39,593 bases of DNA from a virus (taxonomy: Duplodnaviria; Caudoviricetes), in IMG/VR virus record IMGVR_UViG_3300037782_000060, positions 1 to 39,593 of that record, one strand, 5' to 3'. The position numbers and the translations under genes were made by a program. Below, in pieces: positions 21,094 through 36,514 of this stretch (the stretch's first letter is position 1; each line of letters begins with the position of its first letter). The notes under the pieces are model-generated. The model saw only the letters and a list, made by a program, of their open reading frames with translations, was not told the DNA's origin and did not search any database.

Positions 21094-21462
21094 TCAGGAT
21101 AATAAGTTGGGTCTGCCTTTTATGATCTCTTCAACCCTGTACATGATTTGCTTGATACTGAATGGCTTCCATATCAAATCATTTGCACCAGCCTTCATTG
21201 CCTCATGAATATCTTCATACTCATCTTTGACGGTGACCATGATGATCGGCGCTTTGAAATCGTTTGCTCTGGCAGCCTTAATGAAATCAATTCCGGTCAT
21301 TCCCGGAAGCTCCCAATCCATGAGAACTAGATCTGCTTTCTCAAGCAGCGGAAGCGCTGCGAGTGGGTTATCAATACAATCCCTGGTGAACCCCATCAAC
21401 TGAACAGCCTGGCACAGCATTGTGCGTGATGTTGTCTCATCATCAACGATAAGGACATGCAT
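21094..21462 (-). CDS. Single-domain response regulator receiver (CheY-like)
   Basis: VLIVDD, DLVLMDWELPGMTG (phospho-Asp), PIIMVT, AGANDLIWKPF; ATG lies 1 nt after the upstream stop. Confidence 0.92.
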   Translation of the reverse strand: MHVLIVDDETTSRTMLCQAVQLMGFTRDCIDNPLAALPLLEKADLVLMDWELPGMTGIDFIKAARANDFKAPIIMVTVKDEYEDIHEAMKAGANDLIWKPFSIKQIMYRVEEIIKGRPNLLS

Positions 21463-21463
21463 A

Positions 21464-21712
21464 TCAGACCCTGTCTTGTTTTTTATCAATGCGGTCATTC
21501 GCGTGCCGGATTTCTCCGCGCAGATTCTTCGTTAATGACTGATTGGCCCTGTGCAATATATCGATATCCTTATCATGCCGCTCATTAGTGACATGCTTTA
21601 ACCTGATATCTTGTATCTGCAAAACCAGCCACCAAACAACCGCACCGATGAAGGGACCGACAGTAAAAGCCACAACCCAAAACCACGTTGGTATTCGGTC
21701 AATGACTTCCAT
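21464..21712 (-). CDS. Holin-like membrane protein, first late gene
   Basis: One N-terminal hydrophobic segment (WFWVVAFTVGPFIGAVVWWLVL) and a charged coiled-coil tail; lambda S position. Confidence 0.5.
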   Translation of the reverse strand: MEVIDRIPTWFWVVAFTVGPFIGAVVWWLVLQIQDIRLKHVTNERHDKDIDILHRANQSLTKNLRGEIRHANDRIDKKQDRV

Positions 21713-25821: not shown

Positions 25822-26064
25822 TCATGCCACCACCGCCTCAGTGCCGCGGATATACGCCCAATCGACATCAGGGCGCAAATCCTCACACCTGACAAACCCG
25901 GCAGTTTCCCGTTCAAAATTAATGCACACCGACTCTCTAAGAGGCTGGCGGCTATACCTTATTTTCTTAATGTATCCCCAGGACGTGCCGCACCGAGCAC
26001 AAAAAGCTTCGCGCTCTTTATCGCTTAAATACTCAGTCTTAAGGTATCCAATTAATTTATCCAT
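25822..26064 (-). CDS. Cro-like repressor (YdaS-like)
   Basis: FCARCGTS.GY, ETAG.V..EDLRPDVDWAY; divergent from the cI-like gene. Confidence 0.88.
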   Translation of the reverse strand: MDKLIGYLKTEYLSDKEREAFCARCGTSWGYIKKIRYSRQPLRESVCINFERETAGFVRCEDLRPDVDWAYIRGTEAVVA

Positions 26065-26070
26065 GCAGAA

Positions 26071-26099
26071 ATACTACCCATAGGTATATCTCTAGTCAA
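26071..26099 (-). promoter_or_regulatory. pR promoter overlapped by an operator
   Basis: TTGACT-17-TAGTAT; operator TACCCATAGGTA at 26075-26086. Confidence 0.82.
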
Positions 26100-26126
26100 T
26101 ACCTAAAGGACATTTACCTAAAAGTA
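26075..26126. promoter_or_regulatory. OR operator array (consensus TACCYnnRGGTA)
   Basis: TACCCATAGGTA 26075-26086, TACCTAAAGGAC 26100-26111, TACCTAAAAGTA 26115-26126. Confidence 0.8.
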
Positions 26127-26141
26127 ATGATTTCTTACTAT
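26113..26141 (+). promoter_or_regulatory. pRM-like promoter
   Basis: TTTACC-17-TACTAT, ending 6 nt before ATG 26148. Confidence 0.65.
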
Positions 26142-26147
26142 CAAGCC

Positions 26148-26654
26148 ATGAATATTTATGAAATGCGCCGCCTAGACCTGATTGATCTCAGGGAGAGCAT
26201 TGGGGTAGGTGCATACAGAAAGATGTCTGATAGAACAGGTATTGATGCTTCATACCTGTCTCGGTGTGCTTATGAAAAAGGCAAGGCCGGTAGAAAAAAC
26301 ATAAGTGACAAAATTGTTGAAGAACTAGATAAAGCTTACCCAGGGTGGCGTAAGAGAGAGCTGACCCAGATAGAGAGACGAACAGGTAGCGCTAAGCTAT
26401 CGCTTTTACACGAAGTAAAAGAACCTTCCGATAGCAACGCATACAATACTGAAGCAACCTCAATACCTTATTATCAGAGTTGTTCACCAGCTGCAAAAAA
26501 GCTAATCGCCCGCATCATCGCTGCCGAAGCAAATCACACCAGCAGCCCTCAACTTATTAGCGCCCTGACACAAATGATGGACGCGGTTATCCCGGAAACA
26601 AGTAATAACGACTACAAGAAACTTATGGACGAGTTTAATGAGCCAGATAGTTAG
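26148..26654 (+). CDS. CI-like prophage repressor (no S24 peptidase domain seen)
   Basis: N-terminal HTH (MSDRTGIDASYLSR..RKNISDK); divergent from cro across the operators; start moved from 26127. Confidence 0.8.
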   Translation: MNIYEMRRLDLIDLRESIGVGAYRKMSDRTGIDASYLSRCAYEKGKAGRKNISDKIVEELDKAYPGWRKRELTQIERRTGSAKLSLLHEVKEPSDSNAYNTEATSIPYYQSCSPAAKKLIARIIAAEANHTSSPQLISALTQMMDAVIPETSNNDYKKLMDEFNEPDS

Positions 26655-27459
26655 CCTGATCGGCAGAAACAGTTACTCAGGCTTTATCAACTGGGCCAGC
26701 AAAGAAGACAAGCACCTCAATGCCGTCCATATTGCCAGGTTCAATCACCCTGACCACGGCAAATGCGAAGCCTATGCAAAAATGTTCCCCTACGAGAACG
26801 GTGCCAACCGGGGGTTAATTAACGAAATAACCGGCTATCTGTTTGCCCATGCCATAGGCATACCGCAGCCTGAAATAGCCTTTGTCGCAGAGATCCCGAC
26901 ATGGAAGCTCGCCAATAAACCCAAATGGCTAAACGGCATCGACTTCTACCCCGCATTCTGCACAAAAAGAATGGACGCCAGAGCCGCAGCGTTCCGCCTG
27001 CCTGACGCCCAAATCCCCAGCCTCATTGCCAGCGTTGACAGGTGGGAACACATCACCCCCACAGTGTGCATGGATGAAAGCGTCTCCAATACAGACAGGC
27101 ACCTCAACAACCTGCTCAAAACGGGCAAAGACCAATATGCCATCATCGACACAGACAGAATCGCCTCCACGGTCACCCACCCGCACTGGACCACCCAGTC
27201 ACTCGACCACGCTGCGCTGTATGAAAATAAACTCTCGCGAATTGTCTGGAACCATCAGCCTAAAAACAAAAACGTCAGCCTCATGCTCTCTCATTCCCCG
27301 GCGATCAGCAGCGCTTTCTCGCAAATTAAAGATGAGATAAACTATTGGACAACTAAACTGCTTGAAAAAGAAGAAAAAGCAGCGTTTACCCAATTCCTTG
27401 CTGCCCGTTCCAATCAGCTCGACCAACTACTAAGGCAGCGTTACAACAGGCTTCTGTAG
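26638..27459 (+). CDS. HipA-like Ser/Thr kinase
   Basis: AYAK (ATP Lys), LINE, NTDRHLNNLL catalytic loop, IIDTD Mg-binding Asp. Confidence 0.88.
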   Translation: MSQIVSLIGRNSYSGFINWASKEDKHLNAVHIARFNHPDHGKCEAYAKMFPYENGANRGLINEITGYLFAHAIGIPQPEIAFVAEIPTWKLANKPKWLNGIDFYPAFCTKRMDARAAAFRLPDAQIPSLIASVDRWEHITPTVCMDESVSNTDRHLNNLLKTGKDQYAIIDTDRIASTVTHPHWTTQSLDHAALYENKLSRIVWNHQPKNKNVSLMLSHSPAISSAFSQIKDEINYWTTKLLEKEEKAAFTQFLAARSNQLDQLLRQRYNRLL

Positions 27460-28362
27460 ATGACGTTTAAAACCTTATTCTCTGGTGCGCCTGATCTTGA
27501 TGCCCCCGCCGTCGTGGGCGAATGGTTTTCTATCAGCATCATTCCTGATCTGGCTACTGATGAAAGACTAAACATCGGTATAGGCCTGGCTCACCAAGAC
27601 CAGCTCAACTTTAAAATTGTCGAAGACCTGCAAGGCTTCAAATGTCTTTATGGCAAAAATGGGCTGGCCAGCATCAAAGACCTCATTCACCTCAGCATTG
27701 AGCACTTTAAAGAATCAGGTAATATCGAAAGCCCCTCAAGCCATATACTGATCGGCGAAAAGCGGCCAGCTGCAGGCAATAGCGTTGATGAAATATTGAA
27801 CGACCTGTTCTATACCATGGTGCCCATCGCCTTTGCACACCATGGTGACAAAATGCTGCAACTCAAAGAGCCAGCCCTTACCGTAGATAACAAACGGCTT
27901 AGGCGAGAAGTATTCAAGCAAATTGAAATGGCCGCTAACGACAACTATCACAAAATCATTCAGCAGCAAGCCGTGATGCTTGATGATAAATCGGGCATCA
28001 CCCACCGACTCGACCTGCCTATTCTGGATAGATACGGCGACCACTTCTCCAAGAGCCTCTATGGCTCCATCGTCTCGGCGCACTATGTCTCTGACGTGCA
28101 TCGGGGTTTTTTCCTCAATGGTGCATCGACATCACTCATCACCGCCAGCTCACTGCTCAGCAACTCACACGGCAGCCTGTTCATCTTGCGACCAGAAGAA
28201 GGCACCCCGGGATACACCGATGAAATGCTGGACATCATTGATGAAGAAATCGACAACACCGCCTGGCCACTGAAAAACCGTTTTGACATAGAAGTACACG
28301 TTGAAAGCTCATCAGAAGCGATTGCCCGAAATGTATTACACATGATCGGCCAGCATCATTAA
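27460..28362 (+). CDS. DUF3037-like protein, kinase partner
   Basis: PDLATDERLNIGI N-terminal motif; ATG abuts the kinase stop; the HipA-like kinase/DUF3037 pairing is a recurring gene pair. Confidence 0.72.
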   Translation: MTFKTLFSGAPDLDAPAVVGEWFSISIIPDLATDERLNIGIGLAHQDQLNFKIVEDLQGFKCLYGKNGLASIKDLIHLSIEHFKESGNIESPSSHILIGEKRPAAGNSVDEILNDLFYTMVPIAFAHHGDKMLQLKEPALTVDNKRLRREVFKQIEMAANDNYHKIIQQQAVMLDDKSGITHRLDLPILDRYGDHFSKSLYGSIVSAHYVSDVHRGFFLNGASTSLITASSLLSNSHGSLFILRPEEGTPGYTDEMLDIIDEEIDNTAWPLKNRFDIEVHVESSSEAIARNVLHMIGQHH

Positions 28363-28373
28363 TACAAAACACA

Positions 28374-28748
28374 ATGCAAGGAGCAAACATGGCAACAGGA
28401 AAAGTCGTCAACATACTCAAATCAAAAACAGAACTAAGTCGGGAAGAGATCGAAGCCCTCACCAACCAGCAAGCATGGGAAATGGTCTACTCACTGCCAT
28501 CAAAGAAACAAAACTATCTCATGGAAGTGTGCTTCACCGGCTTCACACCTTCTGAAAAGGCCGCATTAGTGGCAATGGCTGAGGAAAGCAAAATAAAAGT
28601 CCGCACGAGCGTAACAAAGAACCTCGACTATCTTGTCACCGGTGACGACCCAGGCCCATCAAAGCTGGATAAAGCCGAATCAACCGGAAAAGCCATCATC
28701 ACAGGGAAAGAGTTTGAATCTAAACTCAGAGAATTAAAGGAAGACTGA
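28374..28748 (+). CDS. BRCT domain protein
   Basis: VCFTGF, SVTKNLDYLVTG..PGPSKLDKA, as in the ligase/PolIII-epsilon BRCT; start may be 28389. Confidence 0.88.
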   Translation: MQGANMATGKVVNILKSKTELSREEIEALTNQQAWEMVYSLPSKKQNYLMEVCFTGFTPSEKAALVAMAEESKIKVRTSVTKNLDYLVTGDDPGPSKLDKAESTGKAIITGKEFESKLRELKED

Positions 28749-28749
28749 T

Positions 28750-29184
28750 ATGAAAACCGTTTTTATATTGATCAGCCTGCTGCCTATTTATGCCCATGCC
28801 GGCCAAATATACAAATGCACTGACAAACTCGGCAACACCGCCTTTCAGCAACAACCCTGCAGCCAAAGCCAGGGCAAGGCCGAAGTCATCGACATGCCAT
28901 CCGCCCCTACAACGCAATGGCAACCCACCCCACAACAACCCGAAGACCCCTATGCCCAGGCACTCGAAGACATCCAACGCTCAGAACAGCAAAGACAAGC
29001 AGACTATGACCGACGGATTCAAGAAATAGACCAACAACACTGCCAATACTACAGAGACCAACTCACCGACGTTCAGGAACGCTGGCAAACGCTTAAACGG
29101 CAAGGCTACACCCAACAAGAACGCGACCGCTGGGAAAACCGCATCGCCAGCCGCCAGCGTGATGTTGAGCGTGAATGCCGCTGA
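28750..29184 (+). CDS. Exported DUF4124-like protein
   Basis: Signal peptide ending AHA, IYKCTDKLGNTAFQQQPC, Gln/Arg-rich coiled coil. Confidence 0.8.
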   Translation: MKTVFILISLLPIYAHAGQIYKCTDKLGNTAFQQQPCSQSQGKAEVIDMPSAPTTQWQPTPQQPEDPYAQALEDIQRSEQQRQADYDRRIQEIDQQHCQYYRDQLTDVQERWQTLKRQGYTQQERDRWENRIASRQRDVERECR

Positions 29185-29694: not shown

Positions 29695-29776
29695 TCAAGA
29701 TCCCTCTCAAACATCACTTTTAAAGACCTTAAATATCTCAGTAAGACGACCACTTTTCAATATTATTAAAAAATAA

Positions 29777-29817
29777 TACCCGTGAGTATTGACTTGCTAA
29801 TTACCTTTAGGTACATT
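29777..29817 (+). promoter_or_regulatory. pL promoter with OL operators
   Basis: TTGACT(29789)-17-TACATT(29812); operators TACCCGTGAGTA 29777-29788 and TACCTTTAGGTA 29802-29813 match the OR consensus. Confidence 0.85.
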
Positions 29818-29908
29818 TTATCACGCAGTCAACGAAAACGGCCTCACCCGGCGGAGAAACCAATTAACCAAGTTGTTAAGCCGGATGAGTTTTTGAAATG
29901 GAGTAGTT

Positions 29909-30112
29909 ATGAGCGACAAAGCTTTTTCATTGAACCTCAGAAACAGGCGCGCCTCATTGGGCCTGTCTCAAAAAGCACTTGGTGAAGCGATATCAATTTC
30001 ACGGGTGAGTATTAATCACTACGAGACAGGTAAAAAGCAGCCCTACCCCACGACGCTGAAAAAAATGTGTCGCTTCTTCAAGTGCACATCAACACAGCTT
30101 CTCGGATTTTAG
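29909..30112 (+). CDS. XRE-family HTH regulator
   Basis: LRNRRASLGLSQKALG..ISRVSINHYETGKKQP; GGAG RBS. Confidence 0.88.
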   Translation: MSDKAFSLNLRNRRASLGLSQKALGEAISISRVSINHYETGKKQPYPTTLKKMCRFFKCTSTQLLGF

Positions 30113-30128
30113 GGGTATAGAGACTGAT

Positions 30129-30515
30129 ATGAAAGCGAATGAGGAACAGAAAATAATGCTCGGCAGGTTTTACGCTGTATACCTTGAGCCAATCATCTCC
30201 TCTGGTGAGCGCTTCAATATCGCTGTTGTTGCCGAATGTGAAAGCGCTAAGTCCGTAACCCAAACGCTCTCTGAGGCAAAGATATCCTGCTTGTTTAGCA
30301 ACCGGGCGCCGGAATTTGCAGCACTTGTTAACTCAATCATTAAGAGTCTGCAGGAGCACGTTTACGACAAAGGGTTGTTCGACCAATGGCAGGCACCTTT
30401 TAACGGCATCACAACCAGCAGAACATACAAATGGAAAGGCCGTGACATCGAACAACTGGAACGCCAGGCCATAAGTAGTACAGCGAGCCTTTTTGATGAA
30501 TCGGAGGTCGCTTGA
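30129..30515 (+). CDS. Stand-alone DUF3037-like protein
   Basis: EPIISSGERFNIAVV motif; aligns by eye with the N-terminal ~125 aa of 27460-28362. Confidence 0.7.
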   Translation: MKANEEQKIMLGRFYAVYLEPIISSGERFNIAVVAECESAKSVTQTLSEAKISCLFSNRAPEFAALVNSIIKSLQEHVYDKGLFDQWQAPFNGITTSRTYKWKGRDIEQLERQAISSTASLFDESEVA

Positions 30516-30691
30516 AAACCATCCTCATCAGCACAGGCCAGGAAGTTTACCCACTGCACTACGCAGGCCAGCAGCAATATTGGCCGATCAACTTCTGGCG
30601 CGTGCTTATCCCCACACAAAACGGCAAAGCACGGATCCAATACATCCGTAAAAACCGCCTGCGCCAAATCAAAACCAACGCAGGTAAATAG
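30512..30691 (+). CDS. 59-aa hypothetical protein (not in the ORF track)
   Basis: GGAGG RBS; TTG start overlapping the upstream stop; MKTILISTGQEVYPLHY... Confidence 0.5.
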   Translation: MKTILISTGQEVYPLHYAGQQQYWPINFWRVLIPTQNGKARIQYIRKNRLRQIKTNAGK

Positions 30692-36111: not shown

Positions 36112-36326
36112 AGCGAAGATCGTTAATTTTCAAGCATCAAGGCCCGATGCTTATCGGCGCAACCCAATTAAAAAATTGGGATGTCCAGGAAAAGCGAACC
36201 TGCCCGGTTGCTGGTGAATATTGGGTGCCTGCAAGACCGTTATCTATGACCGGAATTAAAACCAGAATCATGCTGGCCTGGAAAGTTTTTACGGGCGAAT
36301 GTGACGCCCTCACATGGAGAAGTTAA
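36108..36326 (+). CDS. Hypothetical phage protein
   Basis: [21 protein letters not shown]; coupled to neighbours. Confidence 0.62.
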
Positions 36327-36328
36327 TC

Positions 36329-36514
36329 ATGTTAATACTCACCCGCCGCATCGGCGAATCACTCATCATCGGCGACGACGTAGTAGTCAACGTCCTCGGC
36401 GTCAAAGGCAACCAAGTCAGAATCGGCGTGGACGCCCCAAAAGACGTCTCCGTTCACCGTGAAGAAATCTACGACCGCATCCAGGCTGAAAAGCCAAAGG
36501 CGGTGAAGTCATGA
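36329..36514 (+). CDS. csrA: Carbon storage regulator CsrA/RsmA homolog
   Basis: [48 protein letters not shown], very close to the E. coli CsrA sequence; GGAG RBS. Confidence 0.96.

Follow-up and report, generated by a model that had tools for sequence, protein, structure and literature searches.

Gene content of the locus

The window, that is, the whole stretch of DNA analysed, is a linear virus record of 39,593 bases that is 66% complete. Its layout is that of a lambdoid temperate phage, in which the minus strand carries the terminase and structural genes and the plus strand an early operon that ends with the integrase. Among the other genes are a lone response-regulator receiver gene near the terminase genes (21094-21498) and, within the early operon, a homologue of CsrA (36314-36514). 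The features around the short gene considered here are collected in Table 1.

Table 1. Features of the immunity and early regions of the window and the matches on which they rest
Feature	Position	Strand	Basis
Cro-like small regulator	25822..26064	-	PF15943 YdaS, E 1.9e-7
pR-type promoter	26099-26071	-	consensus scan
Three operator-like sites related to TACCTTTAGGTA	26075..26126 (26075, 26100, 26115)	.	cro/cI divergent promoter region
Putative CI repressor	26127..26654	+	divergent from cro; phrog_5736 regulator, E 1.5e-4
HipA-like kinase, 273 aa, overlaps cI 3' end	26638..27459	+	PF20613, E 1.7e-5 (below curated cut-off); kinase profile A4, E 1.9e-18
Full-length kinase partner, 300 aa, DUF3037-like N-domain and C-domain	27460..28362	+	phrog_27972, E 6.9e-26
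Putative pL-type sigma70-like promoter, TTGACT-17-TACATT	29789..29817	+	consensus scan
Operator-like palindrome TACCTTTAGGTA	29802..29813	.	between both hexamers, in promoter spacer
XRE/HTH_3 regulator, 67 aa, first gene after pL-type promoter	29909..30112	+	PF01381, E 1.3e-13
Stand-alone DUF3037-like domain gene, 128 aa	30129..30515	+	phrog_21150 N-half, E 5e-20
59-aa ORF, TTG start, GGAGGT upstream	30512..30691	+	no family match (Pfam, PHROG)

The 128-aa gene has an ATG start preceded by a purine-rich stretch and is, as the first-pass annotation had it, the second gene at the head of the early operon, behind a pL-type promoter that contains the operator-like palindrome. The operator-like pattern occurs five times in the window against 1.6 expected, and four of the five matches lie at the pL-type and cro/cI promoters; with an operator common to pL and pR, the pL-type promoter would be repressed by CI. 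One site (26115-26127) runs right up to the first ATG of the putative cI gene, whose true start is uncertain, and suggests that the cI message may be leaderless, as is that of lambda. At its other end, the TGA stop of the 128-aa gene overlaps the TTG start of the 59-aa ORF, so that the end of the stand-alone gene appears integrated into the operon. The order at 29909-30515, an HTH gene and, immediately after it, a putative counter-defence gene, is reminiscent of Aca/Acr pairs.

The sole kinase of the record lies 2.7 kb away from the short gene together with its own partner, and three accessory genes follow the pair. An adjacent HipA-like kinase and DUF3037-containing partner, as in the HipAD/DS-6 module, are present at 26638-28362. 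The cassette proteins have no direct match to PDC-M66 in PADLOC, and P0007, a relative of the partner, is named DUF3037 and matches both PF11236 and PDC-M66B; the cassette is a remote member of the HipAD/DS-6/PDC-M66 module. Behind the partner, a contig of X5, a relative found in public runs, skips the BRCT gene that separates the partner from a DUF4124 gene (28355-28797), and loose ends are present in X9 at both of these positions, which marks this cargo slot as swappable.

Homology and fold of the 128-aa protein

A relationship between the 128-aa protein and the N-terminal domain of the own kinase partner had been proposed from residue pairings, which profile alignment reproduces. Pairwise BLAST between the two proteins is marginal (18% identity over 73 aa, E 0.015), but profile comparisons establish the homology. 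HHalign of the short-protein family against the partner family covers 100 columns with a probability of 97.3% (E 2.3e-11), and the single short sequence against the partner family reaches 77% (E 2e-5). Both proteins match phrog_21150, the short one at positions 13-125 of 286 and the partner with E 4.7e-7.

The DUF3037-like label first given to the protein stands through remote profile and structure links and fails as a direct Pfam assignment. Since the protein has no match to Pfam DUF3037 (PF11236) at E<=0.1, the label is remote and transitive: HHalign of the short-gene family directly against classical DUF3037 gives 59% (E 9e-5), and the own-partner family reaches 94% against the same profile. 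In the ESM Atlas, feature matches of the short protein score 0.92-0.93, a DUF3037 cluster is matched with a TM of 0.69, and its feature and structure neighbours carry PF11236 in a minority or majority of their members. By remote homology, the 128-aa protein belongs to the DUF3037-like superfamily. The Atlas matches also include several clusters of DUF3037-like proteins of 110-129 aa, with 59-252 members and often viral, as well as Acidobacteriota proteins of ~263 aa that join the DUF3037-like fold to an S24 peptidase domain.

The AF2 model of the protein is confident (pLDDT 93.7) and superposes on a 287-aa viral long form with a query TM of 0.85 and an rmsd of 1.0. No solved relative of the fold was found, either with Foldseek against the PDB (best E 0.14) or in a wide structure search with VIA (best match Z 3.5, rmsd 2.8, 69 residues aligned). 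A word-index protein search returned the protein itself only, and no RNA run contained more than 7% of the sequence words.

The open reading frame ends 7 residues past the domain, and the C-terminal half is missing, as the first-pass annotation had noted. tblastn with 10 long forms finds no C-domain remnant downstream of 30515, which rules out a nonsense or frameshift truncation that left one, and no kinase remnant lies beside the gene. Against a profile of the long forms the protein scores 110 bits, where held-out long forms have a median of 122.6 and 23 of 87 score lower. Seventeen of 26 family-conserved columns are kept and nine differ or are missing, the motif columns among the 26 being fixed by the design of the search.

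Placement relative to the own partner

Relatives of the short protein number 169 among 50% representatives; they are mostly 270-310 aa long, and the best is 37% identical. The short protein prefers phrog_21150 and the own partner phrog_27972, and in a 53-row tree the own-partner family is set apart at 100/100. A placement of the short protein as sister to the own partner is rejected (AU p=0.002), a result that, with the 18% identity, also rejects a recent duplication of the partner; the AU test does not reject a basal placement beside the own-partner family (p=0.39). The kinases paired with the closest long forms of the short gene are at most 20-37% identical to the own kinase (partial alignments). 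The short gene thus belongs to a different subfamily from the own partner and originates outside the own-partner family. Its branch is long, at ~1.0 changes per column, and since the nearest long form is only 37% identical and the placement in the tree is unstarred, any choice of a cognate target kinase would be tentative.

A single origin of all stand-alone forms is likewise rejected (AU p=0.0014). In the 53-row tree, the short Pseudomonas forms group in a clade of their own (100/99), whose sister group consists of Pseudomonas long forms (95/91); the same short-only clade comprises 11 rows, with an SH-aLRT of 96, in a quick tree of 141 rows.

Stand-alone forms elsewhere

In a viral motif scan, all 69 loci contain a long form whose kinase lies upstream or, in one case, is fused to it, and a second viral scan of 16 loci contains seven true matches, all of them long and with a kinase. 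Stand-alone forms are thus rare, at 0 of 76 true viral motif matches, in a scan that is strict, is built from long forms, may undercount diverged stand-alone genes and missed the window's own record. The genome scan contains 47 long forms accompanied by a kinase, 19 loci that lack the domain, five short forms without a kinase, two long forms without a kinase, two loci cut by the locus end and one broken form. The metagenome scan (at least 119 loci) contains at least 53 long forms with a kinase, at least 42 loci cut by the locus end, at least 17 without the domain, at least three short and at least three long forms without a kinase, and at least two short forms with one. Scans of viral contigs with the short protein, P0009, the L112 protein and a 235-aa early gene yielded no true relatives, and a short classical DUF3037 protein had no match in GenBank phages.

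The credible stand-alone loci are L111, L112, L128, L229 (same as L128), L188 and L218, together with the plasmid records L006, L008 and L009. Every one of these forms ends 3-9 residues past the domain. One setting is the replication operon of an Ignavibacteria-type prophage (L112 and L128/L229), where the gene lies between a primase-helicase gene and small phage genes; further copies are on Pseudomonas plasmids (L006, L008, L009, L111 and, from a metagenome, L218) and in L188, and the viral motif scans contributed none. Several candidates were set aside: L109, with an open 5' end and a transposase-like ORF downstream, and L133, L095, L211 and L222, which are broken or lie at a contig end. Also left uncounted are 30 proteins below 215 aa among 150 matches examined, one of them the query's own entry, for which context is mostly absent.

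The neighbours of the stand-alone forms vary. In a 1.06-Mb plasmid contig of Pseudomonas serbica (L111:136-4468), the gene lies directly behind an NAD salvage cluster with matches to a phosphoribosyltransferase, an NAD synthetase and an adenylyltransferase, a neighbourhood that recalls NAD-rebuilding counter-defence; in L006 and L009, the neighbours are small unknown plasmid genes. Full-length partners without a detectable upstream kinase occur as well, in prophage-like or mobile contexts (L096:4941-5768; L231:4911-5828), and are possibly orphan full antitoxins or decayed cassettes. A short partner is also found beside a kinase: at four of eight PF11236 loci in 151 sampled genomes, a ~130-aa partner without the C-domain lies directly behind a kinase-like ORF, so that the domain plausibly carries the kinase-controlling function.

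Selection, kinase absence and variation among relatives

The other stand-alone forms are under purifying selection. L112 and L128 differ with dN 0.023 and dS 0.356, and L006 and L111 with dN 0.31 and dS 1.79, the latter near saturation; in two close stand-alone pairs dN/dS is ~0.38 on 9-11 changes. A matching kinase is found in none of six replicons or genomes that carry a stand-alone copy, namely three complete plasmids and three genomes (G001-G003). As PF20613 is too insensitive for these kinases, a purpose-built profile was used instead, which was positive in 3 of 3 controls. For G001-G003 the absence is weak evidence, since they come without completeness figures and two are MAGs. Conversely, no second copy of the domain was found in 49 other virus records with the full cassette, 28 of them at least 90% complete; these were taken from 77 viral cassette loci, and the window itself was positive twice as the control.

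The relative X5 covers the 128-aa gene without a gap, with at least three differences listed, of which two are synonymous, and contains pieces of both the short gene and the cassette. One contig of X9 skips 29708-30512, with kinase pieces at similar depth, a hint from a single contig at a lax threshold that the HTH gene and the short gene form an accessory unit.

Comparison with known systems

HipAD/DS-6 systems were validated only in 2025-26 (PMC13092281; PMC12548924; both in excerpt). For Retron-Sda1, deletion of the kinase abolished defence, and deletion of the DUF3037 gene was toxic (PMC12548924, in excerpt). DS-6 defence requires kinase activity, AF3 predicts a DS-6A:DS-6B complex, and DS-6 has been modelled as a 2:2 complex (PMC13092281, in excerpt). 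The window's own cassette resembles HipAD/DS-6/PDC-M66 in its order, with the HipA-like kinase first and then a partner whose N-terminal domain is DUF3037-like, here behind cI. The short gene shares with these systems its homology to the N-domain of the partner. However, it lies in an early operon, belongs to the remote phrog_21150 subfamily and has no direct match to PF11236 or PDC-M66B. HipAD/DS-6 partners lie directly downstream of a HipA-like kinase and have a C-terminal second domain (DUF1829 in DS-6B), and the 128-aa gene has neither. Within the phrog_21150 subfamily, kinases match PDC-M66A only at E 1e-5 to 4e-7, and none of three long partners matches PDC-M66B; given this distance to the validated systems, a defence role of the subfamily is an extrapolation. 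Short classical PF11236 partners of HipA_2 kinases are similar in being ~130 aa long, single-domain and of the same remote fold family, but they lie directly behind the kinase, whereas the window's gene does not.

The short gene fits the description of a putative orphan antitoxin: it is an antitoxin homologue encoded without a cognate toxin, on a mobile element and in a position from which it would be expressed early. The antitoxin role of the long partner rests on a remote relative (PMC12548924, in excerpt). Precedents for mobile elements that set a toxin-less, antitoxin-like protein against toxin-antitoxin defence are AdfB of ICP1 (PMC11481870, in excerpt) and AdfN of T4-like phages (PMC11825919, in excerpt), both shown experimentally to counter DarTG. 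Their target is an ADP-ribosyltransferase, whereas that of the short gene would be a kinase. The short gene also differs in being one domain of a two-domain partner, in having arisen several times and in having a carrier that is itself equipped with another, different cassette of this class. Toxin-less antitoxins in plasmid leading regions, e.g. orphan hipB, have been proposed to inhibit the defences of hosts or rivals (PMC11541004, in excerpt); the stand-alone copies on Pseudomonas plasmids fit this idea but belong to another protein family.

Function of the stand-alone domain

The leading explanation, put forward tentatively and at nearly an even chance, is that the short gene encodes an orphan antitoxin mimic directed against foreign kinase modules, those of other prophages or of the host, and not against the phage's own kinase. 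The short protein has kinase partners as its relatives, without exception in the viral scans; stand-alone forms recur with the same boundary, from multiple origins and under purifying selection; no matching kinase was found in the six carriers searched; and the short protein folds confidently and scores like an intact member of its family. In the published systems, moreover, both toxicity and defence come from the kinase, which the DUF3037 gene neutralises (as described in the available parts of the papers cited above). On infection or induction, the short protein would be made early, and its N-domain alone would neutralise a kinase; the published neutralisation used the whole DUF3037 gene, with its C-terminal region (PMC12548924, in excerpt). 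The targets would be kinases of its own subfamily, i.e. those of phrog_21150-type cassettes, which are common in proviruses, and a resident module of that subfamily would then meet additional antitoxin made early by the incoming or induced element, in the manner of AdfB and AdfN against DarTG. Complex prediction for the short protein and the L178 kinase, which comes from the long-form clade nearest to the short protein, gave a score of 0.00 in two runs (88-row alignments each; controls not folded) and weighs neither for nor against this explanation. The first-pass annotation had named two targets for such a domain; the data favour the second of them, homologous modules carried by rival prophages, with the neutralising step presumed, and the general idea of a decoy or antidote domain acting on kinase modules is retained in this form.

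A rather unlikely alternative is that the short protein is a decoy that binds the partner protein or a phage trigger instead of the kinase. It could act as a dominant negative in a partner oligomer or as a sponge for the activating signal, so that the foreign module is silenced, or it could strip the partner from its kinase, so that the rival's module fires. Partner-partner contacts are plausible given the 2:2 model of DS-6 (PMC13092281, in excerpt), and the trans-acting pattern, the repeated origin and the purifying selection would fit a decoy equally well. However, the ~130-aa DUF3037-only partners directly behind a kinase point to the kinase as the direct binding partner. Improbable, in turn, is a co-opted domain with a role outside kinase defence, e.g. 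one that binds another host or phage protein in early development. The varied neighbours (phage replication in L112 and L128, NAD salvage in L111, small unknown plasmid genes in L006 and L009) would agree with this, as would the often viral Atlas clusters of 110-129 aa and the long forms with an S24 peptidase domain. Yet the full-length relatives in viral contigs all occur together with a kinase, and the simplest reading of truncations that recur at one position is that a single activity has been retained.

The version that the first-pass annotation had put forward, a self-antidote split between the lysogenic and lytic programmes, in which the early gene product would hold the own kinase in check and induction would therefore not set off the phage's own defence, appears quite improbable. 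One genome does combine the cassette behind cI with the short gene behind pL, X5 has pieces of both, and the basal position beside the own-partner family is compatible with it. It nevertheless goes unsupported, since the short gene is of a different subfamily, with low identity, another PHROG and sister status rejected, since the other stand-alone copies occur without a kinase and since no second copy accompanies the cassette in the 49 other records. The distance between the own kinase and those of the closest long forms tells against it too, as does, weakly, the X9 contig, which skips the short gene with kinase pieces present. Just as improbably, the gene would be a functionless relic, a truncated piece of a former foreign cassette left by recombination: broken or frameshifted long forms exist (L095, L211, L133), the branch is long, nine of 26 conserved columns are altered or missing and X9 may be without the gene, but no kinase or C-domain remnant adjoins it, its stop codon, which overlaps the start of the next gene, falls at the boundary common to the other stand-alone forms, its frame is intact, intact forms score in the same range against the profile and it is free of gaps in X5.

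A wider reading may be entertained, with slightly less confidence than the mimic itself: phages and plasmids would repeatedly have cut the kinase-inhibiting domain out of HipAD-type partners, in each case from cassettes found in their own range of hosts, and the phage would arm its lysogen with one version of the module, made from the lysogenic transcript, and use the early antidote to disarm the version of another subfamily carried by rivals. The stand-alone copies possibly constitute an uncharacterised anti-HipAD family, maybe as wide as the short viral DUF3037-like clusters of the Atlas. The literature searched, which did not include the reported HipAD paper of Brenes and Laub (2025), contains no counter-defence or domain-level mechanism for HipAD/DS-6, and the available parts of the DefensePredictor and retron papers make no mention of stand-alone DUF3037 copies; the neighbourhoods in the S1 File of PMC12548924 might already show such genes. 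Within that literature, the strategy of antitoxin mimicry is known, and its use on a HipAD-type kinase through repeated truncation appears new.

Should the stand-alone domain inhibit the kinase, it would be a counter-defence candidate for HipAD/DS-6 and would identify the inhibitory domain of the partner; it would also mean that counter-defence proteins can arise repeatedly through the truncation of a defence gene. The naturally occurring short and long forms allow a direct comparison of specificity between subfamilies. A further natural variant is found in a viral contig (L077:3047-4801), in which kinase and full partner are fused in one ORF of 584 aa, an arrangement helpful for mapping the kinase-partner interface.
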